Part shown: positions 392 to 57,024 of the stretch, piece after piece
Layout of the letters: each line of letters starts with the position of its first letter
Position numbering within the stretch: position 1 is the stretch's first letter
NCBI RefSeq assembly: GCF_003334255.1
Contig: NZ_QOWU01000010.1
Direction: 5' to 3' (one strand)
From: Escherichia coli
Lineage (GTDB): Bacteria > Pseudomonadota > Gammaproteobacteria > Enterobacterales > Enterobacteriaceae
DNA length: 64,000 nucleotides
Notes under the pieces: model-generated
Seen by the model: the letters and a program-made list of their open reading frames with translations, nothing else
Database searches by the model: none
What the model was told of the DNA's origin: nothing
Position numbers and translations under genes: made by a program

Positions 392-1255
392 ATGATGAAA
401 AATATTCTCGCTATCCAGTCTCACGTTGTTTATGGTCATGCGGGTAACAGTGCGGCAGAGTTTCCGATGCGCCGCCTGGGCGCGAACGTCTGGCCGCTGA
501 ACACCGTTCAATTTTCTAATCACACCCAATACGGCAAATGGACTGGCTGCGTGATGCCGCCCAGCCATTTAACCGAAATTGTGCAAGGCATTGCCGCCAT
601 TGATAAATTACACACCTGTGATGCCGTATTAAGTGGCTATCTGGGATCGGCGGAGCAGGGTGAACATATCCTCGGTATCGTCCGTCAGGTGAAAGCCGCG
701 AATCCGCAGGCGAAATATTTTTGCGATCCGGTAATGGGTCATCCGGAAAAAGGCTGTATCGTTGCACCGGGTGTCGCAGAGTTTCATGTGCGGCACGGTT
801 TGCCTGCCAGCGATATCATTGCGCCAAATCTGGTTGAGCTGGAAATACTCTGTGAGCATGCGGTAAATAACGTCGAAGAAGCGGTTCTGGCAGCGCGCGA
901 ACTCATTGCGCAAGGGCCACAAATTGTGTTGGTTAAACACCTGGCGCGAGCTGGCTACAGCCGTGACCGTTTTGAAATGCTGCTGGTCACCGCCGATGAA
1001 GCCTGGCATATCAGCCGTCCGCTGGTGGATTTTGGTATGCGCCAGCCGGTAGGTGTTGGTGATGTGACGAGCGGTTTACTGCTGGTGAAACTGCTTCAGG
1101 GGGCAACGCTGCAGGAGGCGCTGGAACATGTGACCGCTGCAGTCTACGAAATCATGGTGACCACCAAAGCAATGCAGGAATATGAGCTGCAAGTGGTGGC
1201 TGCTCAGGATCGTATTGCCAAACCAGAACATTACTTCAGCGCAACAAAGCTCTGA
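392..1255 (+). CDS. pdxY: pyridoxal kinase 2
   Basis: 287-aa ORF, ribokinase-like PdxY sequence ([24 protein letters not shown]...); synteny tyrS-pdxY-gst. Confidence 0.93.
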
Positions 1256-4122: not shown

Positions 4123-4758
4123 TCAGATGTCAACTTTCTCTTTGTATTCACAAAGATCTTCAATAATACAAGAGCCACAGCGGGGCTTGCGGGCAATGCA
4201 GGTATAACGCCCGTGCAGGATCAACCAATGGTGGCAGTCGACTTTAAACTCTGCTGGAACCACTTTCAGTAGCTTTTCTTCTACCTGTTCGACGTTTTTC
4301 CCCGGCGCAAATTGAGTACGATTACAAACGCGGAAAATGTGCGTGTCGACAGCAATAGTCGGCCAGCCGAATGCAGTGTTTAATACGACGTTGGCTGTTT
4401 TACGACCTACGCCGGGCAGGGCTTCAAGCGCAGCACGATCTTCCGGAACCTCGCCATTATGCTGCTCCAGCAAGATACGGCAGGTTTTGATGATATTTTC
4501 TGCTTTGCTGTTATAAAGCCCAATCGTTTTGATATAGGTTTTCACCCCTTCAACGCCCAGTTCAAGCATCGCTGCAGGCGTATTCGCCACCGGGTAGAGT
4601 TTCGCCGTCGCCTTATTAACACTGACATCGGTCGCCTGAGCGGAAAGCAGTACGGCAATCAGCAATTCAAAAGGCGAACTGAAATTAAGCTCGGTGGTGG
4701 GATGAGGATTGTTCTCACGCAGGCGAGTGAGGATCTCCAGGCGTTTTGCTTTATTCAT
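4123..4758 (-). CDS. nth: endonuclease III (DNA glycosylase/AP lyase)
   Basis: 211-aa ORF with HhH motif and C-terminal 4Fe-4S motif C-X6-C-X2-C-X5-C (CIARKPRCGSCIIEDLCEY). Confidence 0.93.
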   Translation of the reverse strand: MNKAKRLEILTRLRENNPHPTTELNFSSPFELLIAVLLSAQATDVSVNKATAKLYPVANTPAAMLELGVEGVKTYIKTIGLYNSKAENIIKTCRILLEQHNGEVPEDRAALEALPGVGRKTANVVLNTAFGWPTIAVDTHIFRVCNRTQFAPGKNVEQVEEKLLKVVPAEFKVDCHHWLILHGRYTCIARKPRCGSCIIEDLCEYKEKVDI

Positions 4759-5453
4759 CAGACATTCCCTGTTTCACCGTTTGGCAATGCACGTTCTGCA
4801 GCTGCTTCAGCACGGCGCTTTTTCATTCTTTCATCAATCAGGTATTTTCCTGCCAGCATCAGTCCCAGGCCAATAAATGCACCTGGTGGCAGCATCGCCA
4901 GCAGGAAAGGGGAGTCGGTGTGGAAAATCTCCACGCGTAATACTTTTGCCCAGCTACCTAACAGCGCATCTGCACCGTCAAACAATGTGCCATTGCCGAT
5001 AATTTCGCGTAGTGAACCCAGCACGAACATGGCGCAGGTTGCGCCCATACCAATTGAAAAGCCGTCCAGTGCCGAAAGCGCCGGACCTTTTTTGGCGGCG
5101 AAGGCTTCAGCGCGGCCCACAACGATACAGTTAGTGACAATCAGCGGAATAAAAATCCCTAATGATTGATACAGGCCAAAGGCGTAGGCGTTGATCAGCA
5201 TCTGTACAGCGCTGACCACCGAGGCGATGATCATCACGTAAATGGGAATGCGGATCTCGGCTGGCGTCCAGTGACGCAGCGTCGAAATGGTCAGGTTGGT
5301 CAGCGTCAGTACCAGCGTAGTCGCAAGTCCTAAACCCAGAGCGTTAGTGGCAGTGGACGTGACCGCCAACAGAGGACAAAGGCCGAGCAACTGGACCAGC
5401 GCAGAGTTGTTTTTCCACAACCCCTGAACAATAACGTCTTTAATTTCGCTCAC
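4758..5453 (-). CDS. rsxE: Rnf/Rsx electron transport complex subunit E
   Basis: 231-aa membrane ORF, first gene upstream of nth in rsx operon order. Confidence 0.9.
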
Positions 5454-7139: not shown

Positions 7140-9932
<2,793 letters not shown>

Positions 9933-24702: not shown

Positions 24703-24730
24703 CGCCGGAGAGAAAAATCTCCGGCGTTTC
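24703..24730 (+). terminator. rho-independent terminator of uid operon
   Basis: CGCCGGAG-agaaaaat-CTCCGGCG hairpin followed by TTTC, 8 bp after uidC stop. Confidence 0.6.
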
Positions 24731-24758
24731 AGATTGTTGACAAAGTGCGCGTTTTTTA

Positions 24759-24857
24759 TGCCGGATGCGGCGTAAACGCCTTATCCAGCCTACAAAAACT
24801 CATAAATTCAAAGTGTTGCAGGAAAAGGTAGGCCTGATAAGCGTAGCGCATCAGGCA
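24759..24857. repeat. REP/BIME element (two inverted REP units)
   Basis: TGCCGGATGCGGCGTAAACGCCTTATCCAGCCTAC and inverted GTAGGCCTGATAAGCGTAGCGCATCAGGCA, canonical enterobacterial REP consensus. Confidence 0.85.
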
Positions 24858-24874
24858 ATCTCTGGTTTGTTTTC

Positions 24875-24907
24875 AGATGAAAACGCCGGAGTGAAAATTC
24901 TCCGGCG
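24875..24907 (-). terminator. terminator downstream of ydgA
   Basis: Hairpin CGCCGGAG-tgaaaatt-CTCCGGCG with U-rich tract on the minus strand. Confidence 0.5.
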
Positions 24908-42367: not shown

Positions 42368-42391
42368 CGGTGTAGTCACTGGTGTAGTCAC
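42368..42391. promoter_or_regulatory. tandem GGTGTAGTCAC repeat near left end (candidate integrase arm-type site)
   Basis: CGGTGTAGTCACTGGTGTAGTCAC; near-identical copy at 57001-57024 near the right end. Confidence 0.4.
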
Positions 42392-42415: not shown

Positions 42416-43645
42416 GTGAGCAGAGCAATGAACAAACTGAGCGATACCTTGCTAAGGAAACTTCATGGTAAGCCAGCGGAGAAAAACACGTTTTATAGTG
42501 ATGGCGGAAACCTGAGCGTGAAATATTTAACATCAGGGAAATTGACCTGGTATTTCACATACAGGGCCGGAACGGGAAGGGAGACACGACCCGAACGCAT
42601 TAAGCTGGGAAGTTATCCTGATCTGAGCCTGAAAGCAGCCAGGGAAAAAGCCGCACAGTGTCGCACATGGCTGGCTGAGGGGAAAAATCCACGTCATGAG
42701 ATGAATTACACCGTACAGGAAGCGTTAAAGCCCGTAACGGTTGGCGATGCGCTCACCTACTGGCTTGAGTATTACGTAAAGGAAAACCGCGTGGATTATA
42801 TCGCCCTGAAAAGGCGACTTAATAATCACGTAATACAGCAGATTGGTGCTATGCCGCTGGATAAATGCGAGCTACGGCACTGGCTGGCCTGTTTTGACCA
42901 GGTGGCAAAGCGAACGCCTGTTACTGCCGGATTCGTGCTACAGGCGTGCAAACAGGCGCTTAAGTTCTGCCGTAGGCGGCGCTATGCAATCAGCAACGTT
43001 CTGGACGATCTGAACGTGGCGGACGTTGGGAAAAAACCGGATATAAGCGAACGTGTCTTAAGTAACAAAGAACTTGGCGAATTATTGCAGGCACTGGACA
43101 AAAAAATATTTTCCCCTTACTACGTCGCGTTAATCCGCCTCCTGATTGTCTTCGGAGCCAGGACGGTAGAACTGAGGCTATCGGAGATCGGGGAGTGGGA
43201 TTTTACGGAAATGCTATGGACCGTTCCGAAGGAGCACAGCAAAACGAAGGTCGCAATATTCCGGCCCATACCGGAAGCGATCCTGCCGTTCGTCACGCAG
43301 CTGGTGGAGCAGAACAGGCACACGGGCTTATTGCTGGGGGAAGTGAAACAGGAGGCCAGCGTATCGCAGTATGGAAGATTAGCGCACAGGAGGCTTAATC
43401 ATCCTCACTGGTCACTGCATGACATCCGGCGCACCTTTACAACCATGCTGAACGATTTAGGCGTTGATCCGCATGTCGTGGAGCAGCTTACAGGTCATCA
43501 GATGCCAGGAATGCAGCGAGTTTATAATCATTCCCGTTATCTGGATGCTAAACGCAATGCGCTGGATATGTGGATGGAGCGGTTAGGGATACTGGCGGGA
43601 ACACATGAAAACGTAACCACGCTACCAGTAGCCAGAAGAAAATAA
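42416..43645 (+). CDS. int: tyrosine integrase, P4-type
   Basis: 409-aa ORF, GTG start after AGAGGGGG; N-terminal arm-binding domain, C-terminal catalytic region with HDIRRT and downstream Tyr (RVYNHSRY). Confidence 0.9.
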   Translation: MSRAMNKLSDTLLRKLHGKPAEKNTFYSDGGNLSVKYLTSGKLTWYFTYRAGTGRETRPERIKLGSYPDLSLKAAREKAAQCRTWLAEGKNPRHEMNYTVQEALKPVTVGDALTYWLEYYVKENRVDYIALKRRLNNHVIQQIGAMPLDKCELRHWLACFDQVAKRTPVTAGFVLQACKQALKFCRRRRYAISNVLDDLNVADVGKKPDISERVLSNKELGELLQALDKKIFSPYYVALIRLLIVFGARTVELRLSEIGEWDFTEMLWTVPKEHSKTKVAIFRPIPEAILPFVTQLVEQNRHTGLLLGEVKQEASVSQYGRLAHRRLNHPHWSLHDIRRTFTTMLNDLGVDPHVVEQLTGHQMPGMQRVYNHSRYLDAKRNALDMWMERLGILAGTHENVTTLPVARRK

Positions 43646-44019: not shown

Positions 44020-44208
44020 GTGTTAAGCACTGATCGGTTTATACGTGAAAAAGAATGCGAAAAGCTAACAGGCCTTAGCCGCTCATGCCGCTACCGCCTG
44101 GAAAAGGCCGGACAATTCCCATCACGTCGTAAACTTGGCGGTCGTTCCGTTGGCTGGTCTTTATCCGAGGTTCTGGCCTGGAAGGATAGCTGCAAGGCAG
44201 TTCATTAA
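44020..44208 (+). CDS. alpA: AlpA-family phage transcriptional regulator / excision activator
   Basis: 62-aa ORF, GTG start after AAGGGGG; MLSTDRFIREKECEKLTGLSRSCRYRLEKAGQFPSRRKLGGRSVGWSLSEVLAWK matches AlpA/Vis-type HTH proteins. Confidence 0.85.
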   Translation: MLSTDRFIREKECEKLTGLSRSCRYRLEKAGQFPSRRKLGGRSVGWSLSEVLAWKDSCKAVH

Positions 44209-45718: not shown

Positions 45719-46018
45719 ATGAGAACGTATTTATCTGGCTTTACTGCCAGCGGTTATGCACACCCCAAAATTATCCCCGGCGCTATTTATCTGGATAAGA
45801 ACGGTAACAGAGTAACGGTAAAAGAACTGATGTTTGACCGTGTGTATTTTATTCGTGATGGCTATTCATTTCATAGTTCGCTGAACGTGGAGATCTTTAT
45901 TAGCAGATTCCGGCGGGAAATCCCGCTTTCCAGAAATAACCATGTGTCATGTATGGATGTTGATAAAAAACTACAGGAACTGAAAAACATGATTGCCGCG
46001 TGGAGAGAGCAGAAATGA
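45719..46018 (+). CDS. hypothetical protein (99 aa)
   Basis: MRTYLSGFTASGYAHPKIIPGAIYLDKNGNRVTVKELMFDRVYFIRDGYSF...; stop overlaps primase start (ATGA). Confidence 0.5.
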   Translation: MRTYLSGFTASGYAHPKIIPGAIYLDKNGNRVTVKELMFDRVYFIRDGYSFHSSLNVEIFISRFRREIPLSRNNHVSCMDVDKKLQELKNMIAAWREQK

Positions 46019-47832
46019 AAAAAGCGCCAAATTTAAAACACCAGCCGCGTGACAAAATGACGGAAGTCATCATTTTTGCGGGTAGTGATGCGTGGGCACA
46101 TGCGAAGCAGTGGCAGGAACAGGACGGGCGACTGGCTGGCGATAACGTGCCACCTGTCTGGCTTGGAGAGCAACAACTTGCCGAACTGGACAACCTGCAA
46201 ATCGTACCGGACGGACGCTATCGCGTGCGTCTCTACCAGGCGGGGTTATTGCGTCCGGGGCTTGTTAATACCATCGGGCAGAAACTGGCAGCGGCAGGTG
46301 TCAGGGATGCTGATTATTACCCTGAAGGAATGCACAGCCAGAAACGGGAGAACTGGCGCGAATATCTGGAACGTGAGCGGGGAGAGCTGGCGGAAAAGAA
46401 AAAGGTAGTTGAACTGCCTGTAAAGAAAAAAGAGCGGGTAAAAGACGATAACGCTTCATCACTGGCGCTTAACCAGATGGGAGCAAGTCAACGCGGCGAA
46501 GTTCTCCTGGCACATTATGGCGGTGAACTGGCGATTCATGCTGACTCTGACACTGTTCACTATTACAACGGCGTTGTATGGGAGCCAGTACAGGATAAAG
46601 AATTACAGCGAGCTATGGCGCAGATTTTCATTGATGCGGAGATCAGCTATTCGCAGAACGCCATTAAATCGGCGGTCGATACCATGAAGTTAAGTTTGCC
46701 TGTAATGGGGAATACAGCCCGTAACCTGATTGGATTCAGTAACGGTGTTTTTGATACCCGGACAGGCGATTTTCGGGAGCATAACAAAAACGACTGGTTG
46801 TTAATTGCCAGTGAATTACCTTTCAGCCCACCAGCAGAGGGGGAAACGCTGGCAACACATGCGCCGAATTTCTGGAAGTGGTTACGCCGTTCGGTGGCTG
46901 AGAATGACCGCAAGGCGGATCGCGTACTGGCTGCATTATTCATGGTGCTGGCGAACCGGTACGACTGGCAGTTATTCATTGAGGTAACAGGTCCAGGGGG
47001 AAGTGGTAAAAGCGTGATGGCGGAGATTTGCACCATGCTGGCGGGTAAGGCCAACACGGTATCGGCAAGCATGAAGGCGCTGGAAGATGCCAGGGAACGC
47101 GCGTTAGTGGTTGGCTTTTCGCTGATTATCATGCCGGATATGACCCGTTACGCTGGTGATGGCGCAGGAATTAAGGCCATTACAGGCGGTGACAAGGTGG
47201 CAATCGACCCGAAGCATAAAGCCCCCTACTCAACACGCATTCAGGCGGTAGTGTTGGCGGTGAACAATAACGCCATGTCATTCAGTGACCGCAGCGGGGG
47301 GATTTCACGTCGTCGGGTGATATTCAATTTTTCGGAGGTTGTACCGGAAAACGAACGCGACCCCATGCTGGCAGAAAAAATAGAAGGAGAGCTGGCGGTT
47401 GTGATTCGCCACCTGCTTACTCGTTTTTCTGACCAGGACGCAGCTAAACGCCTGCTGTATGAGCAGCAGAAATCAGAAGAAGCTCTGGTGATAAAACGCG
47501 AGGGCGATTCGCTGGTGGACTTCTGCGGCTATCTCATGTCGTCGGTAATGTGTGATGGTCTGTTAGTGGGTAATGCCGAAATTATTCCGTTCAGTCCGCG
47601 CAGGTATCTTTATCACGCCTATCTGGCATATATGAGGGCACACGGATTCGGTAAACCTGTAACACTGACGCGCTTCGGTAAAGATATGCCGGGGGCAATG
47701 GCGGAATATGGCAGGGAGTATATGAAACGGAAAACGAAGCACGGTTTGCGTTCAAACGTGACACTGACGGAGGAATCAGAAGACTGGATGCCATCATGTG
47801 TATCGGTCACTAATGACGATAGCAAAAATTAA
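46015..47832 (+). CDS. P4 alpha-like replication protein (primase/NTPase, P-loop)
   Basis: 605-aa ORF with Walker A GPGGSGKS and Walker B-like region; followed immediately by TGTTCACC iteron cluster. Confidence 0.8.
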   Translation: MKKAPNLKHQPRDKMTEVIIFAGSDAWAHAKQWQEQDGRLAGDNVPPVWLGEQQLAELDNLQIVPDGRYRVRLYQAGLLRPGLVNTIGQKLAAAGVRDADYYPEGMHSQKRENWREYLERERGELAEKKKVVELPVKKKERVKDDNASSLALNQMGASQRGEVLLAHYGGELAIHADSDTVHYYNGVVWEPVQDKELQRAMAQIFIDAEISYSQNAIKSAVDTMKLSLPVMGNTARNLIGFSNGVFDTRTGDFREHNKNDWLLIASELPFSPPAEGETLATHAPNFWKWLRRSVAENDRKADRVLAALFMVLANRYDWQLFIEVTGPGGSGKSVMAEICTMLAGKANTVSASMKALEDARERALVVGFSLIIMPDMTRYAGDGAGIKAITGGDKVAIDPKHKAPYSTRIQAVVLAVNNNAMSFSDRSGGISRRRVIFNFSEVVPENERDPMLAEKIEGELAVVIRHLLTRFSDQDAAKRLLYEQQKSEEALVIKREGDSLVDFCGYLMSSVMCDGLLVGNAEIIPFSPRRYLYHAYLAYMRAHGFGKPVTLTRFGKDMPGAMAEYGREYMKRKTKHGLRSNVTLTEESEDWMPSCVSVTNDDSKN

Positions 47833-47846
47833 ACTTATGGAATAAC

Positions 47847-48076
47847 TGTTCACCACTGTTCACCCTGTCATAAATATCTTTTGTATCAGTATGTTATAGG
47901 GTGAACAGTTATTTATGAACTGTTCACCAAACTATTCACTGTTCACCTTTTTGATTGTTTATTGAGCTTCAAGGGTGAACAGTGGTGAATAGTTGGTGAA
48001 TAGTTTTTGTGAAACTGTTCACCCCTTAACATTATGAATTAAAAGATAAAATATCAAAAGGTGAACAGGTGAAGGG
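47847..48076. repeat. iteron cluster (TGTTCACC / GGTGAACA), candidate origin of replication
   Basis: At least 8 exact 8-mers in both orientations (47847, 47857, 47899, 47921, 47940, 47974, 48016, 48060) plus degenerate GGTGAATA copies in an AT-rich 230-bp non-coding stretch. Confidence 0.8.
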
Positions 48077-48119
48077 TTAAAACGCAAAAATTTTAATTTA
48101 CTGCTGTGAGATAAAGCCT

Positions 48120-48365
48120 ATGACAGCGAAGCACACAAAAAAATCACAATCGCACGCCCTTGATTTGACGGAACACTGGTTAAGGGTGTCGATAAAAATC
48201 ATCGACCGCAACGCCGGGGAAGGATATGCGAAAGCACATCCCGAACTGATTAGCTCATTCATGACAACGGCAGCTGCAAACTTTGCCACGCTGACAGAAC
48301 GGGAGATTGCCGAAGCGGAACAGGTGACAACCATCAACGTTAAAACCGGAGAGCAGACAGCATGA
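48120..48365 (+). CDS. hypothetical protein (81 aa)
   Basis: MTAKHTKKSQSHALDLTEHWLRVSIKIIDRNAG...; stop overlaps start of the SSB-like gene. Confidence 0.45.
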   Translation: MTAKHTKKSQSHALDLTEHWLRVSIKIIDRNAGEGYAKAHPELISSFMTTAAANFATLTEREIAEAEQVTTINVKTGEQTA

Positions 48366-48772
48366 CAGCACAGATAGCAGCTTACGGGCGGCTGGTGGAC
48401 GACCCGCAGGTAAAACAGACCAGTAAGGGCACACCGATGACGCTGGCGCGTATGGCGGTATCGTTGCCATGTAGTCAGGCGCAGGATGGGCAGGCGACGT
48501 TATGGCTATCGGTCATCGCATTTGGTAAGCAGGCCGACTTCCTGGCTAAACATCAAAAAGGCGACGTTGCCAGCGTATCCGGCACGATGCAGGTCAGCCA
48601 GTGGACCGGACAGAACGGGGAAACGCGGCAGGGTTATCAGGTTATTGCAGACAGCGTAATCAGTGCCCGTGCGGCACGTCCTGGCGGGAACAGACGCAAA
48701 ACCACAGGCACACAGGGTAATCAGCCACCAGCGGGAGGCGATGACCCTTACGGTGACGGTATTCCGTTCTGA
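48362..48772 (+). CDS. single-stranded DNA-binding protein-like (OB fold with acidic C-terminal tip)
   Basis: 136-aa ORF with Gly/Gln-rich linker and C-terminal DDPYGDGIPF resembling the SSB DDDIPF tail. Confidence 0.7.
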   Translation: MTAQIAAYGRLVDDPQVKQTSKGTPMTLARMAVSLPCSQAQDGQATLWLSVIAFGKQADFLAKHQKGDVASVSGTMQVSQWTGQNGETRQGYQVIADSVISARAARPGGNRRKTTGTQGNQPPAGGDDPYGDGIPF

Positions 48773-48782
48773 GGGGGTGGCG

Positions 48783-49055
48783 ATGGTACATGACCGCATA
48801 GCGGAAGAACTCGAGGCGAAAGGCTTTTACCGGAGGGCGGCGGCGCGATGGGGTGAAGTCATGCTGCTGGTGGAGACAGACAAGGAACGGCATCAGGTTA
48901 CGATGCGACGGCTGGAATGTTCCAGGAAGGCACAGAAGCCACCGGAGCCGCCGGATAACTTCGGAGACCTGAGAAAGGCAGTAGATCGCACTTATGCTGA
49001 AATGGGTATAGATGGTGTAAGCGATGAAATATGGCGTAATTACCCAGACAGCTAA
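48783..49055 (+). CDS. PerC-family transcriptional regulator-like protein
   Basis: 90-aa ORF MVHDRIAEELEAKGFYRRAAARWGEVMLLVETDKERHQVTMRRLEC...; the AExLExKGxxRRAAxRWxEVM pattern is typical of PerC/Pch proteins; ATG after GAGGGGG. Confidence 0.55.
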   Translation: MVHDRIAEELEAKGFYRRAAARWGEVMLLVETDKERHQVTMRRLECSRKAQKPPEPPDNFGDLRKAVDRTYAEMGIDGVSDEIWRNYPDS

Positions 49056-49060
49056 TCAAC

Positions 49061-49084
49061 AGCCGGAGAAATCCGGCTTTTTTT
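49061..49084 (+). terminator. rho-independent terminator
   Basis: AGCCGGAG-aa-ATCCGGCT hairpin followed by T7. Confidence 0.65.
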
Positions 49085-49179
49085 GCACCAGTTGAAACGG
49101 TATGGCGCATTACCGGGTTTTCGTCACGGTCAGGCATAGTTACTATCTGAAACAAACAGACACAACAGAGGAAAAAACA

Positions 49180-49404
49180 ATGCCGATGAAATTTGATGAG
49201 ATATTAAAACAGCGTGATAAATACCATGCTGACAACATGGAGACGATGAGCATCAATGATTACCGCGCATTCCTGGAGACGGGCGCACTGATTGAAAAGG
49301 ATCAGCATGGTTTTGTGAGATGTGCTCTGTCCGGTGAAATGCTGGCGGTAAATCCTGAACAGATAGATGCATTGATAGAATTTCTGAAAGGGATCAGGGA
49401 CTGA
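49180..49404 (+). CDS. hypothetical protein (74 aa)
   Basis: MPMKFDEILKQRDKYHADNMETMSINDYRAFLETG...; ATG after AGGAAAAAA; followed by a terminator. Confidence 0.45.
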   Translation: MPMKFDEILKQRDKYHADNMETMSINDYRAFLETGALIEKDQHGFVRCALSGEMLAVNPEQIDALIEFLKGIRD

Positions 49405-49414
49405 GCACGCATAC

Positions 49415-49436
49415 AGCCGGAGCAATCCGGCTTTTT
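49415..49436 (+). terminator. rho-independent terminator (near-duplicate of 49061-49084)
   Basis: AGCCGGAG-caa-TCCGGCT hairpin followed by T5. Confidence 0.65.
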
Positions 49437-49696
49437 GTCATTTTTTGTAAATTATTTGTTCGTGGTTGTTCCACGTTGTTCACTGACAGGATCGGCATAT
49501 TTTACCCGAACTGAATCATGAGTATTCTCGCCCGTGGTGCCAGGACGCTGGGGCCACTTTCCCGCCTGTTAATGTGCTCGCCAATATTCATTACCAGGCG
49601 GGAAAACGATCGGTGCGATTGCTGATTTCCTTATGAAAAACGGTTGAGTTTTTGCCGCGTCCTGGAGTTCCTTACTTAACCCCAGGACTTTTTTTT

Positions 49697-50854
49697 ATGC
49701 CGAGAATAATCGAATTACGCCAGCAGAAAACCGCCATTAAAAATCAGATGCGCGACATGCTGGAGAACGCGGAAAAAGAAAACCGCAGCCTTAACGATGC
49801 AGAGGGCGCAAAATTTGACGAATTACGCGCTAAAGCTGAATCCCTCGATAAAGACATTTCCCGCCTTGAAGCCATTGCAGACGAAGAGCGCAGCAAGCCA
49901 GGTAAAAGCAGCCAGACCACTGACCCGGCAGAACTCCGCAACTACATCCTGACAGGTGAAACCCGCGCATTAAGTACAGGCGTTCCCGCTGATGGTGGTT
50001 ATACCGTTATCCCCGAACTGAACACCGAAATCATGCGAATGCTGACGGATGAATCCACCATGCGCCGCATCTGTACCGTGAAGAAAATCAGCAGCAACGA
50101 GTTTAAGCAGCTTGTTTCCGCTGGCGGTGCGACCGTTAACCACGGTGAAGAGGGTAAGACACGCGAACAGACCAGCACCCCGCAGATTAACGAGGTGAGC
50201 ATTAAGCTGTATCCGGTCTATGCGTACCCGCGCACCACACAGGAAATCGTGGATTTTTCCGATGTGGACATCCTTTCATGGCTGACGGGTGAGATTGGCG
50301 ACACCTTCACGGAAACCGAAGAAAGCGATCTGGTTGTGGGCGACGGTGACAAAAAAGCAAAAGGTTTTTTATCCGTACCCCGTGCAGAGAAGAACGACAA
50401 AGAGCGTGATTTTGGTACGTTGCAGGTAATTAAACCTTCCGAATCTCTGGCGTGGACATCTGCGGACCCGCTGATCGACCTGAAATTTGCATTACGTAAA
50501 AAATACCGCAAAAACGCGGTCTGGGTGGTTAACTCCACGACGGCGGCAAAACTTCAGAAGGTGAAGAACGCGAACGGTGATTACATCTGGCGCGACCGTT
50601 TACAGGCGGGTGATCCTGATACGTTGCTGGGCCTTCCGGTCGAATATCTGGAGTTTATGCCTGATAACGTTATTGCCCTGGGTGACTTCAAACGCGGTTA
50701 CTACATTGTTGATCACGAAACAGGTGTTCGCACCAGACCGGACAACCTCACAGAGCCGGGCTTCATCAAAATTTTCACGCAGAAATATTTAGGCGGTGGC
50801 GTGGTGGATTCGAACGCGATCAAGATTCTGGAACTGCCACAGGACGACGATTAA
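49697..50854 (+). CDS. major capsid protein, HK97 fold, with N-terminal coiled-coil (delta/scaffold-like) region
   Basis: 385 aa from ATG 49697 (MPRIIELRQQKTAIKNQMRDMLENAEKENRSLNDAEGAKFDELRAK...); capsid-family core follows. Confidence 0.85.
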   Translation: MPRIIELRQQKTAIKNQMRDMLENAEKENRSLNDAEGAKFDELRAKAESLDKDISRLEAIADEERSKPGKSSQTTDPAELRNYILTGETRALSTGVPADGGYTVIPELNTEIMRMLTDESTMRRICTVKKISSNEFKQLVSAGGATVNHGEEGKTREQTSTPQINEVSIKLYPVYAYPRTTQEIVDFSDVDILSWLTGEIGDTFTETEESDLVVGDGDKKAKGFLSVPRAEKNDKERDFGTLQVIKPSESLAWTSADPLIDLKFALRKKYRKNAVWVVNSTTAAKLQKVKNANGDYIWRDRLQAGDPDTLLGLPVEYLEFMPDNVIALGDFKRGYYIVDHETGVRTRPDNLTEPGFIKIFTQKYLGGGVVDSNAIKILELPQDDD

Positions 50855-50864
50855 CAGCATACAG

Positions 50865-50893
50865 AAGGGGCTTAAAAGCCCCTTTAGTGTTTT
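50865..50893 (+). terminator. stem-loop after capsid gene (attenuator/terminator)
   Basis: AAGGGGCTT-aaa-AGCCCCTT followed by TAGTGTTTT. Confidence 0.5.
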
Positions 50894-51466
50894 ATGGGTG
50901 AAAAAATTATGAAGAGTATGGAAATCCGGTCATCGGAAATCACCACCAGCGCCAGCAACACGCTTACAGGCTACGTTGTTCGCTGGGATAAGCTTTCAGA
51001 GCTGCTATGGGGGGAGTTTTACGAAAAATTCCAGCGGGGAGCGTTTACTGAATGGCTTGCGGCGGGTAATGACGTTCGCGGCCTGTATGAGCATGACCAC
51101 AGCATGTTGCTGGGGCGTACCCGTTCCGGCACGCTGAAACTGGAAGAGGACGAAACAGGGTTACGCTTTGAACTGACCCCACCGGATACCAGTACAGGGC
51201 GCGACGTTATCGAACTGGTTAAGCGTGGGGACATCTCGGGGATGAGCTTTGGCTTTCGCTCCCGTAAGGATGTATGGGATACCACAACAGATCCATGCGT
51301 GCGCACCGTGCTGGTGGCGGAACTGTACGAAATTACCGTTACATCGGTACCGGCTTACCCCGATTCCGGCGTGGAGCTGGCCCGCCGTTCCCTGTATGAG
51401 CAGCACCCCGAAAAAATGCCGCGTGCGGATAATCGCCGCTGGTGGGTGGATTTAGCGGGGGTGTGA
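50894..51466 (+). CDS. prohead maturation protease, HK97 family
   Basis: 190-aa ORF (true start may be ATG 50909); GAFTEWLAAGNDVRGLYEHDHSMLLGRTRSGTLKLEEDETGLRFELTPPDTSTGRD...GDISGMSFGF matches HK97-type prohead protease. Confidence 0.8.
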   Translation: MGEKIMKSMEIRSSEITTSASNTLTGYVVRWDKLSELLWGEFYEKFQRGAFTEWLAAGNDVRGLYEHDHSMLLGRTRSGTLKLEEDETGLRFELTPPDTSTGRDVIELVKRGDISGMSFGFRSRKDVWDTTTDPCVRTVLVAELYEITVTSVPAYPDSGVELARRSLYEQHPEKMPRADNRRWWVDLAGV

Positions 51467-51467
51467 T

Positions 51468-52679
51468 ATGTGGCTTTTCAGAAGAAAAAAAGAGCAGCGC
51501 AGCATGACGCTTGATGAATTTATGGCGCTGGCTGGCACATCGAACACGGGGGCGGGTGAGTACGTATCATCGGGGACAGCGGAATCACTGCCCGCCGTCA
51601 TGAACGCCGTGACGGTCATCTCTGAGGCGGTGGCTACCATGCCGTGTTACCTGTACCTGGTACGCAATGAGAAGGGGAAGGAGGCCCGCGAGTGGCTTGA
51701 TTCTCATCCGGTCGATCACATCCTCAACGAGCGCCCGAACGCGTGGCAGACTCCCTACCAGTTTAAGCGAATGATGATCCGCCACTGCCTGTTAAACGGT
51801 AATGCTTATGCGGTGATTCAGTGGGGGCGTGATGGTTTTCCGGTGGCTTTACATCCTTACCCGCCGCAGTCGGTGAACGTGGAGCAGACAGGCGAACACA
51901 ACTGGCGCTACTGCATCACTGACGCCTACACCGGAAACACCCGCAACTATTTACCGTGGGAGGTTCTCCACCTTCGTTACTCCACGGATGACGGTTTTAT
52001 GGGGCGCTCACCTGTAACCATCTGCCGCGAATCGCTGGGGCTTGGGCTGGCCCAACAACGCCACGGCGCGAGCGTGATGCGTGATGGCATGATGGCGGCA
52101 GGGGTTATCACGTCAGGCGAATGGCTGGACGGCGTGAAGGGCAAACAGGCATTAGCCGCACTGGAACGCTACAAAGGGGCCAGAAACGCCGGAAAAACGC
52201 CCATCCTTGAAGGGGGTATGAGCTATCAGCAGCTGGGCATGAGTAATCAGGATGCTGAATGGCTGGCCTCCCGTCGCTTCACCATTGAAGACATCGCCCG
52301 AATGTTCAACGTCTCGCCGATTTTTCTGCAGGAATACAGCAACAGCACCTACAGCAATTTCAGCGAGGCAAGCCGCGCATTTCTCACCATGACAATGCGC
52401 CCGTGGCTGGCGAACTTTGAGCAGCAGATAAAAAACGCCCTGCTGGTGGCCTCGCCTGTACCTGGTATCCGGTATCAGGTGGAGTTTGACAGCGCGGACC
52501 TGTTACGGGCCACACCTGGCGAACGCTTTGCCACCTATGAACGCGGCATCAAATCCGGCGTTATGTGCCCGAACGAAGCCCGCGAACGTGAAGGGCTGTC
52601 CCCGCGTGATGGTGGTGATGAGTTCAGCCAGGCATGGAAACAGGAAGTAAAAATCAGCGAGGGAGAAAAACCGGAATGA
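51468..52679 (+). CDS. portal protein, HK97 family
   Basis: 403-aa ORF; N-terminal region ...MPCYLYLVRNEKGKEAREWLDSHPVDHILNERPNAWQTPYQFKRMMIRHCLLNGNAYAV typical of HK97-like portals. Confidence 0.8.
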   Translation: MWLFRRKKEQRSMTLDEFMALAGTSNTGAGEYVSSGTAESLPAVMNAVTVISEAVATMPCYLYLVRNEKGKEAREWLDSHPVDHILNERPNAWQTPYQFKRMMIRHCLLNGNAYAVIQWGRDGFPVALHPYPPQSVNVEQTGEHNWRYCITDAYTGNTRNYLPWEVLHLRYSTDDGFMGRSPVTICRESLGLGLAQQRHGASVMRDGMMAAGVITSGEWLDGVKGKQALAALERYKGARNAGKTPILEGGMSYQQLGMSNQDAEWLASRRFTIEDIARMFNVSPIFLQEYSNSTYSNFSEASRAFLTMTMRPWLANFEQQIKNALLVASPVPGIRYQVEFDSADLLRATPGERFATYERGIKSGVMCPNEAREREGLSPRDGGDEFSQAWKQEVKISEGEKPE

Positions 52680-53014
52680 ACATAGGGCGACTGCGTGACA
52701 GGGTAACGATTCAGACCCTGAAACAGACCAGGGATATAACCGGCGAAATACTCGAAACGTGGGAGGACGGTCACACACTCTGGGCAAGCGTGAACATGAT
52801 CAGCAGCAAGGAGGCCATTTCATCGGGTGCAGAGCTGGCGATTGGTACCGTAAGGATCTGGATACGGTACCGGAAGGACATCAATGCCACCAGCCGGATA
52901 AAGGTCAGTACGGGGCCGCTGGCGGGGCGTGTACTGAATATCATCGGGCAGCCGCTGCCGGATGCCGCCAGGACACGCCTTGAAATTCTTTGTCGTGAGG
53001 GCGCGGAAAAATGA
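52676..53014 (+). CDS. head-tail adaptor / head closure protein
   Basis: 112 aa from ATG 52676 overlapping portal stop (MNIGRLRDRVTIQTLKQTRD...). Confidence 0.65.
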   Translation: MNIGRLRDRVTIQTLKQTRDITGEILETWEDGHTLWASVNMISSKEAISSGAELAIGTVRIWIRYRKDINATSRIKVSTGPLAGRVLNIIGQPLPDAARTRLEILCREGAEK

Positions 53015-53307
53015 CAGAAGAACTTATCACCCTGGAAGAAGTGAAACTCCATTGCCGCATCGATGGCGACGAGGAAGACCAGTTAATCAGCGGATACATC
53101 GCCGCATCGCTTGAGGCGTGCCAGATACACATAGGCAGGCGCTTTGATGACGGGCTGGAGTTCACGCCAGCCATAAAGATTGGCTGCATGATGTTTATCG
53201 CTCACCTGTATGAAAATCGCCAGATTGTCGCGGATAACGCAAAAACACGCGTACCCATGACGATTGGTGCACTCTGGACGGCTTACCGTGATGTGGGGGT
53301 GTACTGA
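53011..53307 (+). CDS. gp6-like head-tail connector protein
   Basis: 98-aa ORF MTEELITLEEVKLHCRIDGDEEDQLISGYIAASLEACQIHIGRRF... Confidence 0.65.
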   Translation: MTEELITLEEVKLHCRIDGDEEDQLISGYIAASLEACQIHIGRRFDDGLEFTPAIKIGCMMFIAHLYENRQIVADNAKTRVPMTIGALWTAYRDVGVY

Positions 53308-53747
53308 TGCCGTGGCAACCATTAAGACGATGCACAGAACCAGGCTGTAACAGGCGCGTGAAGTCCGGCAAGTGTGAGGAGCACAGGCGGGCGGCATGGC
53401 GTGCAGAGGATGCCAGACGAGGACACCGCCGCGCGCGTGGGTACTCCAGACAGTGGGACAAATACCGCGCCATGTATCTGAGTAAAAACCCGTTATGCGT
53501 GCGATGCCTTGAGAAGGGGATATATACGCCCGCCGTGGTGGTGGATCACATTATCCCGATTAATGGCGGTGATGATGTTCTCTTCTGGCCCGAATGGAAC
53601 CATCAGCCATTGTGCCAGGCGTGCCATAACCAGAAAACGAAATGGCTTGATCCGGCAACAAAAAGCAAGCGTGCCGCAGGTGGATTTCGTGAAGAGGAAG
53701 AACGGGCCGCTAACCGCAATAACTGGATGTATGACGCTGATGAATGA
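53307..53747 (+). CDS. HNH endonuclease (packaging-associated)
   Basis: 146-aa ORF with Cys pairs (CTEPGCNRRVKSGKCEEH, CVRC) and HNH core VVDHIIPINGG...NHQPLCQACHNQKT. Confidence 0.85.
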   Translation: MPWQPLRRCTEPGCNRRVKSGKCEEHRRAAWRAEDARRGHRRARGYSRQWDKYRAMYLSKNPLCVRCLEKGIYTPAVVVDHIIPINGGDDVLFWPEWNHQPLCQACHNQKTKWLDPATKSKRAAGGFREEEERAANRNNWMYDADE

Positions 53748-53913
53748 GCGGGAACAAAACCGCCTTATCCGTGGACTTATAAGGCAGCGTGACGCATGGA
53801 AGACACAGGAAACAGGGCATAAAGATAAAGCGTCAGGACGCGCAGAACGCATCACAGCGAAGCGATTAACCGACCGTGACCGCGAGGTTATGGAATGTTT
53901 CCGCAATCGCTGA
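53740..53913 (+). CDS. possible small charged protein (57 aa), translationally coupled to HNH gene
   Basis: ATG overlaps HNH stop; MNEREQNRLIRGLIRQRDAWKTQETGHKDKASGRAERITAKRLTDRDREVMECFRNR; no RBS evidence. Confidence 0.25.
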   Translation: MNEREQNRLIRGLIRQRDAWKTQETGHKDKASGRAERITAKRLTDRDREVMECFRNR

Positions 53914-54035
53914 TGAGGCTGTATGACGGGGTGGGGGGCGTTTTCAGGACAAACCCGACCCCGCCGGGCACCGACCGCCTCCTCAAATTTTTATGCACGG
54001 GAATTTTTTGAAAAATAATCTGACGAAAAATAAGC
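53914..54035. other. candidate cos/packaging-initiation region between HNH and terS
   Basis: Non-coding stretch with G/C-rich blocks (ACGGGGTGGGGGGCG, CCCGACCCCGCCGGGCACCGACCGCC) directly upstream of terS; HNH-cos-TerS arrangement is typical of HK97-like cos packaging. Confidence 0.3.
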
Positions 54036-54392
54036 ATGGCAAGACCACCGAAAGCCCCCGCCTACCTGGATGACATCGCCGTGAAGCAGTGGCGGGAAAA
54101 ATCGCGGCAGCTTGCGGAACGGGGAGACCTGACCCCCGCCGACTGGAGCAATCTGGAACTGTATTGTGTCAACTACTCCATTTACCGGAAAGCCGTCGCA
54201 GACCTTGCGGCGCGCGGGTTCAGCATTGTTAACAGTCAGGGCGGCGAGAGCAGAAACCCCGCATTAAGCGCGAAATCAGACGCTGAAAGGGTGATGATAA
54301 AAATGGCCTCCTTGCTCGGTTTTGACCCGATAAGCCGCCGTAAAAACCCACCGGAAACAGAAGAAGAGGACGAGCTTGACCGCCTGGAATAA
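54036..54392 (+). CDS. terminase small subunit (P27-like)
   Basis: 118-aa ORF MARPPKAPAYLDDIAVKQWREKSRQLAERGDLTPADWSNLELYCVNYSIYRKA...; overlaps terL start. Confidence 0.7.
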   Translation: MARPPKAPAYLDDIAVKQWREKSRQLAERGDLTPADWSNLELYCVNYSIYRKAVADLAARGFSIVNSQGGESRNPALSAKSDAERVMIKMASLLGFDPISRRKNPPETEEEDELDRLE

Positions 54393-56037
54393 GTACGCAG
54401 AAGACGTAAAAACGGGCAAAATTCAGGCCTGTAAACGGTTAAAACAGGCCGTTAAACGGTACTTTTCGGACCTTAAAAGCCCCCTTTACACGTTCGATCG
54501 TGAGGTTGTGGATCGGTTTATTGCCTTTTCCAGGGTGTGCCCGCACGTAAAAGGGCCGATGCGTGGCAGACCCATTGAGCTGGAGCCGTGGCAGCAGTTC
54601 GCCTTTGCGTGCATCCTCGGCTTTAAGGTTAAGGCCACCGGACGGCGCAAATATACGAGCGCCTTTATCGAAGTGCCGCGCAAAAATGCTAAATCAACGA
54701 CCGCCGCGATTCTGGCTAACTGGTTTCTGATTATGGAGAACGGTCAGCAGGATATTTACACCGCAGCGGTGAGCCGTGACCAGGCGAGGATCGTATTTGA
54801 TGATGCGCGTCAGATGTGCATTTTATCCCGACCGTTACGCAGGCGGGTGAATATTCAGGCGCATAAGGTGATACACCCGAAAACCAACAGCCTGTTAAAG
54901 CCGCTGGCAGCAAAAGCGGCAACTATCGAGGGCACAAACCCCAGTCTTTCTATCGTGGACGAATACCACCTACACCCCGACAACGGCGTATATTCTGCGC
55001 TTGAACTGGGGATGGGGGCACGTCCCGAAGGGCTGTTATTTGCCATTACCACATCGGGAAGTAACGTCGTTTCAGCCTGTAAGCAGCATTATGATTATTG
55101 CTGCCAGATCCTGGACGGCGAAGAGGTTAACGAATCGCTTTTTGTGCTGATTTACGAACTGGACGACGAAAACGAGGTTGATGATCCGGAGATGTGGATA
55201 AAGGCGAACCCTAATATCGATGTTTCCGTGGATCGTGAAAAACTGGCCTCAACCATTCAGAAAGCGCGGGGTATTCCGTCGCAATGGGTGGAGATGATGA
55301 CAAAGCGATTTAATATCTGGTGTCAGGGGACTACCCCGTGGATGGGTAATGGTGCATGGGCTGAGTGTGCCGGAACGTTCACGGAGGAAGATTTACACGG
55401 TCAGGAGTGTTACGCGGGGCTGGACTTATCATCAACCAGCGATATTTCCAGCGTGTGCTATGCCTTTCCGGTCGGTAAAACCATTATGATGATTTCCCGT
55501 CATTATCTGCCGGAGTTCCAGCTACAGAACCCCGCCAATAAAAACCGCGCTGTCTATCGTCAGTGGGCTAAAGCAGGCTGGATACGCACAACGCCTGGCG
55601 ACTGCATTGATTACGACCGGATCAGAGATGACATCATGCAGGACGCGGAGAAATTTAATATCAGGCTGGTGGGCTTTGATACGTGGAACGCCACGCATCT
55701 CAGAACGCAATTACAGGGGGCAGGTTTTGAGGTGGAGCCGTTCCCGCAAACCTACCTCAGATTCAGTCCGGCGGCGAAATCGTTCGAAGTTTTTGTTAAC
55801 CGCAGGGTGATTGTGCATCGTGGCGATCCGGTGTTGTCCTGGTCGATGAGTAACGTCGTGATGCAGAGTGACGCGAACGCCAATATCAAGCCGAACAAGA
55901 AAAAATCACCGAACAAGATAGACCCGAGCGTGGCGGCGCTGATGGCGTTTGGTACATTCCAGGCAGAGCATGAGGATTTTGCTTTTGATATAAGCGACAG
56001 CCACCGCCAGAAACTGGAAGAATTTAGCGGGGTGTAA
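54376..56037 (+). CDS. terminase large subunit
   Basis: 553-aa ORF with ATPase P-loop region (VPRKNAKSTTAA) and C-terminal nuclease-type domain. Confidence 0.85.
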   Translation: MTAWNKYAEDVKTGKIQACKRLKQAVKRYFSDLKSPLYTFDREVVDRFIAFSRVCPHVKGPMRGRPIELEPWQQFAFACILGFKVKATGRRKYTSAFIEVPRKNAKSTTAAILANWFLIMENGQQDIYTAAVSRDQARIVFDDARQMCILSRPLRRRVNIQAHKVIHPKTNSLLKPLAAKAATIEGTNPSLSIVDEYHLHPDNGVYSALELGMGARPEGLLFAITTSGSNVVSACKQHYDYCCQILDGEEVNESLFVLIYELDDENEVDDPEMWIKANPNIDVSVDREKLASTIQKARGIPSQWVEMMTKRFNIWCQGTTPWMGNGAWAECAGTFTEEDLHGQECYAGLDLSSTSDISSVCYAFPVGKTIMMISRHYLPEFQLQNPANKNRAVYRQWAKAGWIRTTPGDCIDYDRIRDDIMQDAEKFNIRLVGFDTWNATHLRTQLQGAGFEVEPFPQTYLRFSPAAKSFEVFVNRRVIVHRGDPVLSWSMSNVVMQSDANANIKPNKKKSPNKIDPSVAALMAFGTFQAEHEDFAFDISDSHRQKLEEFSGV

Positions 56038-56050
56038 TGAGGTCAGCAGC

Positions 56051-56332
56051 ATGACAGAAGCCGAAATAACGGGATTAATCCGCCGCGTTGCCGGAATCAG
56101 CCAGCAGGCTGACGAACAGGCCACGCAGCCGGACAGCGTGACAGCCGAAAACTATGCGCGTGTTGTTGCTGAGGTGATGCGCCGTGATGGTATAGAACTT
56201 AATGGCGTGGATATGCGCAACATACGAACCAGAGTTCTTGAGTTGCTGGCCTACCGTCGCCGCGTGGAGATGTATCGGGAGAAGGAGAAAATAACGTACC
56301 ACTGGAAGAAGCCGGAGCGGTTGCGGCGGTAA
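56051..56332 (+). CDS. hypothetical protein (93 aa)
   Basis: MTEAEITGLIRRVAGISQQADEQATQPDSVTAENYARVVAEVMRRDGIEL...; ATG after GAGGT, 14 bp downstream of terL stop. Confidence 0.5.
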   Translation: MTEAEITGLIRRVAGISQQADEQATQPDSVTAENYARVVAEVMRRDGIELNGVDMRNIRTRVLELLAYRRRVEMYREKEKITYHWKKPERLRR

Positions 56333-56419
56333 CTGGTTGATATTCCCGACGGACCAAAAATGGGTGGCTACATCCCTCGCTTCTGAGGACTGTTAACAAG
56401 CTGCCTGAAAGACAGTCAC

Positions 56420-57000: not shown

Positions 57001-57024
57001 CGGTGTAGTCACTGGTGTAGTCAT
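57001..57024. promoter_or_regulatory. tandem GGTGTAGTCA repeat near right end (candidate integrase arm-type site)
   Basis: CGGTGTAGTCACTGGTGTAGTCAT, counterpart of 42368-42391. Confidence 0.4.

Follow-up and report, generated by a model that had tools for sequence, protein, structure and literature searches.

The 287-bp intergenic region at positions 47833–48119 of the window, the 64,000-nt stretch of Escherichia coli DNA analysed here, very probably serves a 14.65-kb capsid-forming PICI (cf-PICI), integrated in tqsA, as its vegetative replication origin, as judged from comparative sequence analysis. The region runs from the stop codon of a CDS annotated as a 'primase' (46015–47832, + strand) to the next gene (48120–48365, + strand). 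It carries twelve iteron sites, eight of them exact TGTTCACC/GGTGAACA octamers and four degenerate copies, and the first site begins 15 bp past the stop codon of the upstream gene, hereafter rep (Table 1). An earlier note, made from the sequence, had placed an iteron cluster at 47847–48076, directly downstream of the primase gene, and had described at least eight exact octamers plus degenerate copies, in both orientations, in AT-rich non-coding DNA. Mapping and counting of the sites inside the gap bear out both the placement and the description.

Table 1. Features of the island, of its putative replication origin and of a variant origin used for comparison; positions are those of the window unless another record is named.
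Feature	Position	Strand	Remarks
Left 23-bp direct repeat CGGTGTAGTCACTGGTGTAGTCA	42368–42390		Probable attL in tqsA
Integrase	42416–43645	+	Tyrosine recombinase
Small helix-turn-helix regulator	44020–44208	+	At the usual PICI AlpA position
DUF4222 gene	45719–46018	+	Directly upstream of rep
Rep initiator	46015–47832	+	Annotated 'DNA primase family protein'
Rep domain layout	aa 1–130; 162–291; 325–433; 496–593		In order: domain without family; D5_N; SF3 helicase, Walker A GPGGSGKS; winged helix
Winged-helix origin-binding domain (putative), coding region	47500–47793 (aa 496–593)	+	1KA8 match, AF2 model, iteron covariation
Wing hairpin	47725–47754 (aa 571–580)		AF2 model; K575/H576 at tip
Whole intergenic origin region (putative)	47833–48119		Two inverted iteron modules plus flanks
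Left module	47847–47947	−	Doublet 47847, 47857; opposite single 47900; triplet 47921, 47933, 47940
IHF-like site TATCAGTATGTTA	47884–47896	+	Perfect match to IHF consensus WATCARNNNNTTR; beside left single iteron
Central AT-rich spacer, 26 bp	47948–47973		Between triplets; palindrome centre
Right module	47974–48075	+	Triplet 47974, 47984, 47995; inverted single 48016; doublet 48060, 48068
Exact TGTTCACC	47847, 47857, 47921, 47940, 48016	+	
Exact TGTTCACC	47900, 47974, 48060	−	
Degenerate copy GGTGAATA	47984, 47995		
Degenerate copy TATTCACT	47933		
Degenerate copy GGTGAAGG	48068		
81-aa gene	48120–48365	+	phrog_1231; first past the origin
Island single-stranded-DNA-binding protein (SSB)	48362–48772	+	TIGR00621 above cut-off; annotation
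HK97-type head/packaging module	49652–56037	+	Capsid, protease, portal, head-closure, connectors, HNH, TerS, TerL
Right 23-bp direct repeat	57001–57023		Probable attR
Variant origin (L061)	4691–4985 of IMGVR_UViG_2784132061_000002		

The backbone of the window is core chromosome from tyrS to mlc, 98.3–98.8% identical to that of O157:H7 PV15-279. The island splits tqsA, and the 23-bp direct repeats at 42368 and 57001 bound about 14.65 kb; as the sole flanking repeat found, this 23-bp sequence is probably the att site. It is itself a tandem duplication of GGTGTAGTCA, and consensus IHF-like sites lie near the right end of the island at 56330, 56465 and 57068. Gene names were taken from the annotation of a near-identical O157 locus. 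The first part of the island comprises, in order, the integrase, the small helix-turn-helix regulator, an Icd-like gene, the DUF4222 gene, the 'primase' gene and the iterons. Past the iterons follow the 81-aa ORF, SSB, PerC, the major capsid protein, an HK97-type protease and the portal, and the last part encodes head-closure and connector proteins, HNH, TerS and TerL. The regulator would be AlpA, going by its position only. No tail or lysis genes occur in the island according to the annotation of the O157 locus.

This gene set, namely an integrase, a small regulator, rep and the island's own head and packaging genes, free of tail and lysis genes and spanning 14.65 kb (range about 10–18 kb), matches the published definition of capsid-forming PICIs (10.1101/2022.09.08.507074; PMC10085698). 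Going by its gene content, the island in tqsA is thus a capsid-forming PICI of 14.65 kb. Helper-phage-dependent induction, and transfer with helper tails, have been shown for EcCIEDL933 (10.1101/2022.09.08.507074). The HK97-type head module annotated in the same island also agrees with the earlier proposal that a P4-like replicon is paired here with HK97-like capsid genes.

Outside the island, the alignment to O157:H7 PV15-279 breaks in rsxC, at 7186–7716 of the window, where tandem repeats of about 96 bp are found, which suggests that their copy number differs from that in PV15-279. About 150 bp of the ydgA–uidC interval (window positions ~24730–24881) are missing in PV15-279; GC-rich short repeats CGCCGGAG lie close by, and the segment may be a REP/BIME-type insertion.

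Eight of the eleven exact copies of TGTTCACC in the 64-kb window fall in the gap (shuffles of the window gave 2.0 on average and never more than 5), where 0.005 would be expected from the gap's own base composition, and the octamers form the most repeated 8-mer cluster per 230 bp across the whole window. Their extended consensus is ACTGTTCACC. The GC content of the iteron gap is 27–37%, compared with about 50–60% in the flanks. ORFs that cross the repeats do not exceed 29 aa, and neither a DnaA box (up to two mismatches) nor GATC is present in the iteron region. Low GC content, and nothing else, speaks for a chance cluster in AT-rich DNA. Eight octamers against the 0.005 expected speak against it, as does the retention of the cluster both in IMG/VR loci and in 648 of 5426 complete E. 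coli genomes, this being the number matched by a 501-bp query around the origin. The same 501 bp are 100% identical to loci of O157:H7, O26 and O103 strains. Enrichment, presence in relatives and the constraint on iteron columns described below rule out a chance origin of the cluster.

The twelve sites form two modules of about 100 bp, inverted relative to each other and with six sites each, around a 26-bp AT-rich centre. Outward from this centre, each module consists of a triplet with 10–11 bp phasing, a spacer of about 13 bp, a single site in the opposite orientation, an AT-rich spacer and a doublet. In each module the single site is followed by ...TAAC..., and the starts of single and doublet are 43–44 bp apart. 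Site spacings are 10, 11, 21, 44 and 8 in the right module, compared with 10, 11, 22, 43 and 10 in the P4 ori core (NC_001609, 9310–9413), whose site orientations match those of the right module. The left module reads 10, 43, 21, 12 and 7, that is, 7, 12, 21, 43 and 10 as the mirror image in the sense of the right module, and aligns collinearly with P4 ori, P4 crr and the right module. When the two window modules are aligned together with P4 ori, the two 120-bp repeats of P4 crr and the two modules of the satellite vB_KppS-Ant, the result is likewise collinear, with invariant iteron columns. Since the modules are inverted, a single strand of the region folds as one long imperfect hairpin (dG −61 kcal/mol, z = −10.45). 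The 26-bp central spacer is one candidate for the site of first melting.

The iteron region holds only one consensus IHF-like site, TATCAGTATGTTA, which sits within a conserved spacer motif, TAAC-N5-6-TGAWWT; its right-module counterpart (about 48026–48040) is a poorer match to the consensus. The spacer motif adjoins the single inverted iteron across all iteron classes, even where the iteron word is different, and the modules that share its position include those of P4, EcCICFT073 and Pmp7.

P4 replication needs two cis elements, ori and crr. The classical work on P4 ori, crr and alpha is reportedly that of Flensburg and Calendar in 1987 and of Ziegelin and colleagues in 1993. The octamer of P4 is identical to that of the window, being annotated as 'ori type 1 repeat' in both ori and crr of the P4 GenBank record NC_001609, and the P4 ori module is alike in site number, orientation and spacing. 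The earlier identification of the octamer as a P4 type-1 iteron therefore holds, both for the word itself and for the collinearity of the modules with ori and crr. The arrangement of the elements differs. P4 has two loci about 4.5 kb apart, with one module in ori and two direct 120-bp repeats in crr, whereas the window has one locus with two inverted modules, and this locus occupies the crr position of P4, 3′ of the gene, and not the ori position. Octamers in both orientations, the ori module geometry and an alpha-type SF3 helicase with a winged helix are thus found as in P4, but searches of the island and the window found neither a Toprim primase domain in the initiator nor separate ori and crr. 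The facts on P4 used here were drawn in part from the annotation of NC_001609 and from PMC2777425.

Gram-negative PICIs have their origin directly 3′ of pri-rep, with two iteron sets around an AT-rich region (PMC6092414). A rep–ori segment of EcCICFT073 maintained a plasmid, and deletion of rep or ori impaired maintenance (Fillol-Salom et al. 2018, PMC6092414); for the ori deletion, a significant drop in plasmid maintenance is reported, and abolition is not stated. The window region is placed in the same way, immediately 3′ of pri-rep, with its two inverted six-site modules on either side of the 26-bp AT-rich centre. In the EcCICFT073 locus that we retrieved, a 2-1-3 / 3-1-2 site layout 3′ of the gene is identical to that of the window, although the iteron word is TGTCTACC instead of TGTTCACC. 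Neighbouring genes are also shared, with DUF4222 upstream and a small ORF, ssb and perC downstream. EcCICFT073 Rep is 48% identical to the window Rep and has the same N-terminal domain, but its winged-helix domain has diverged. Furthermore, EcCICFT073, a classical PICI, is packaged in helper capsids, whereas the window island encodes its own capsid. As the two loci agree in layout and position, the window region can be regarded as homologous, in both respects, to an origin that has been tested. The placement of the island's origin in the earlier note is in line with this, since PICI origins, the experimentally tested one among them (PMC6092414), have this position and layout.

That study called the likeness of Pri-Rep to P4 'distant' (PMC6092414); in the lineage of the window the likeness is, by our alignments, close, reaching the iteron word and the module geometry. 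The SaPI origin follows the same concept, an AT-rich region 3′ of rep lying between iteron sets (PMC6092414), and the helicase core of SaPI Rep (SaPI5 PriRep, PDB 7OLA) is distantly related to that of the window Rep (E = 1.2e-10). The SaPI iterons and DNA-binding domain, however, are unrelated to those of the window, and the SaPI host is Gram-positive.

The resemblance to P4 also raises the question of whether the cluster could be a crr-like cis-acting enhancer or organiser only, with synthesis starting elsewhere in the island. It does lie at the exact place of P4 crr, directly 3′ of an alpha-type gene, and the dual requirement of P4 would fit such a role. We nonetheless consider this unlikely. 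An octamer search found no second iteron cluster in the island or in the rest of the window; the sites of the right module line up with those of the P4 ori core in both number and spacing, a closer fit than with crr; and the equivalent single locus of EcCICFT073 is the ori element that was deleted in the replication test (PMC6092414).

The sites also lie between rep and the next operon, and could mainly be regulatory Rep-binding sites, acting in autoregulation, in control of ORF81–ssb–perC or in handcuffing, beside or instead of an origin. Plasmid iterons often have secondary regulatory roles. Neither a sigma-70-like promoter nor an intrinsic terminator was found in 47600–48400. As no terminator follows rep (in P4, one separates alpha from crr), read-through transcription would cross the iterons, which speaks for such a role; the lack of a promoter speaks against it. 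An operator, moreover, needs no two-module geometry of the kind common to P4 ori and the tested PICI origin, and regulatory binding is in any case compatible with origin function. A mainly regulatory role is, in our view, very unlikely, and we retain the reading of the region as an origin.

Rep, the putative initiator, has Pfam matches to D5_N, DUF5906 and Pox_D5. Over aa 145–595 (~450 aa), covering the helicase and the winged helix, it is 51% identical to P4 alpha, and residues 497–593 match the P4 alpha origin-binding domain 1KA8, a solved winged helix, with E = 1e-24. The 1KA8 structure is said to come from Yeo and colleagues in 2002. In an AF2 model of the Rep winged helix (pLDDT 89), residues 571–580 form a β-hairpin wing. 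In the domain comparison, the DnaG-type Zn-ribbon/Toprim primase domain, which is N-terminal in P4 alpha, is absent from Rep. The label 'primase' is thus probably a misnomer, since no primase domain is recognisable. Accordingly, the 'primase' of the earlier note stands in so far as the protein is an alpha-type helicase with a winged helix, but not in respect of the primase domain itself.

To relate the iterons to the protein, we compared 83 loci, comprising 80 from IMG/VR (Rep 88–100% identical) and L001–L003. All but one have 5–9 exact octamers within 340 bp past the rep stop codon. Among the very close IMG/VR relatives alone, conservation gives a weak signal (MWU p = 0.026; Fisher not significant). 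Between the window and another E. coli PICI whose origin is 78% identical (L084), iteron columns are 94% identical, compared with 71% elsewhere (p = 3e-6), and between the window and the Ant satellite the values are 78% and 54% (p = 1e-4).

The two-module layout is retained at one IMG/VR locus, L061, where the sites read TGTTCAT[T/C]. At iteron positions 7–8, 22 of 24 bases differ from the window (CC to TT/TC), whereas identity is 92% at positions 1–6 and 75% in the spacers. The L061 Rep and the window Rep differ at 32 positions overall. Seven of these lie in the folded winged-helix domain, five of them within residues 572–578 (R572K, K573R, K575T, H576A and L578V) and two outside, I524L and E587D; five further changes lie in the C-terminal tail. 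Every TGTTCACC-type protein examined, P4 alpha included, keeps T-K-x-G at the wing tip. No further iteron variant of the L061 type was found in complete E. coli genomes, and L061 is unique in IMG/VR.

Other iteron words occur at the same place. These are ACTCTCCGC, in two inverted modules on a cf-PICI-like contig; ACCCTACA, in a Toprim-bearing P4-like element; and ACTATACACC, in a metagenomic contig; a further word, AAAAGTGCAA, is found in Serratia phage Scapp. Across relatives, so far as alignments can tell, the iterons change together with the winged-helix domain, and the wing tip (K575/H576) is a candidate specificity determinant for iteron positions 7–8.

Several of the loci collected have features of their own. 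In Scapp (L088, 2911–3408; the genome record is the full 43 kb), a P4-alpha-like primase is followed by a terminator and then by at least six AAAAGTGCAA repeats. The Pasteurella satellite Pmp7 (L087, 3256–3428) has one P4-type module 3′ of its rep gene. In L178 (4607–4816), a free-standing 69-aa ORF with a Pox_D5 (winged-helix) match lies downstream of a P4-like primase, and may act with the origin-binding domain as a Cnr-like partner. In E. coli Iso00041 (NZ_CP095155.1; L086, 1880–3000), IS903B sits inside the homologous origin, directly past the second iteron, so that most of the sites are cut off from Rep; a HEPN-domain gene then follows.

The hairpin fold of the region suggests one more reading, in which it is a structured transcript, either an attenuator or a long hairpin RNA, or else what is left of a palindromic mobile element after decay, with the octamers a by-product of the palindrome. 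Besides the strength of the fold, weak scores of Rfam miRNA-hairpin models on the region point this way. Every Rfam match, however, is far under its gathering score, and such weak matches arise because the modules form a palindrome. Conservation tracks the octamers and not their pairing partners, and in L061 the iterons on both arms switch word in step with the DNA-binding wing. A hairpin also leaves unexplained the tandem sites within one arm, with their 10–11 bp phasing. We therefore hold this reading to be extremely unlikely and continue with that of a replication origin.

Prophage Sp7 of strain Sakai offers a comparison at the level of the whole island. It is 97.7% identical to the island over 48180–56344 and 92% identical over the int region, but lies in the roxA–phoQ gap, whereas the window island lies in tqsA. 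The cf-PICI prototype, EcCIEDL933, and Sp7 are probably one and the same element. The sole segment replaced between island and Sp7, about 46380–48180, comprises the helicase, the winged helix and the iterons. The Sp7 cassette encodes a 710-aa replicase that shares only its N-terminal ~140 aa with the window Rep (71% identity), and, like the window island, Sp7 has an iteron cluster 3′ of the replicase, here with 11 copies of TAACCCGCA. The 2018 supplement (Fillol-Salom et al., PMC6092414) lists a 15.5-kb HNH/terL element at roxA–phoQ in EDL933, and the same in Sakai; the link drawn above between Sp7 and EcCIEDL933 comes in part from this entry. From these alignments, rep and its iterons evidently move as one cassette between otherwise near-identical satellites.

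In the mechanism that we propose, a helper phage would induce the island, Rep would be made, and its winged helices would dock on the twelve iterons. Rep hexamers would then assemble. Here we purely infer that the six sites of each module could fit one hexamer, and that the inverted modules could fit a head-to-head pair. AT-rich DNA, either at the centre or in the 43-bp spacers, would melt and the helicase would unwind in both directions, after which the island SSB would coat the strands and the host Pol III replisome would copy them. Since Rep has no recognisable primase domain, priming would probably be provided by host DnaG.

A broader and more tentative proposal, which we think possible though rather doubtful, is that P4-like satellites and this PICI/cf-PICI lineage share one origin code, consisting of the identical octamer, the six-site module geometry and the T-K-x-G wing tip in the initiator, with cross-firing or blocking between them. 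On the same proposal, the inverted modules would template an SF3 double hexamer, the head-to-head six-site modules being likened to SV40 or papillomavirus origins, and specificity would be reset through just one or two residues of the wing tip (K575/H576).

The accepted view of PICI or P4 replication is unchanged by these results, as this type of origin has already been described for PICIs. The new points are modest. They are the homology, at module level, of the PICI double module to P4 ori, the cassette swap in the Sp7-containing cf-PICI lineage, the candidate specificity determinant at the wing tip and a 'primase' that appears to lack a primase domain. For annotation, the last of these amounts to a correction, and such islands probably rely on host priming. 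For the biology of the satellites, a probable cis-acting origin and its initiator are located for a widespread cf-PICI lineage, together with a testable rule for origin specificity that links wing-tip residues to iteron positions 7–8. Should the shared origin code prove true, satellites of the two families, which are often found in the same E. coli hosts, could replicate each other through their initiators or be incompatible.
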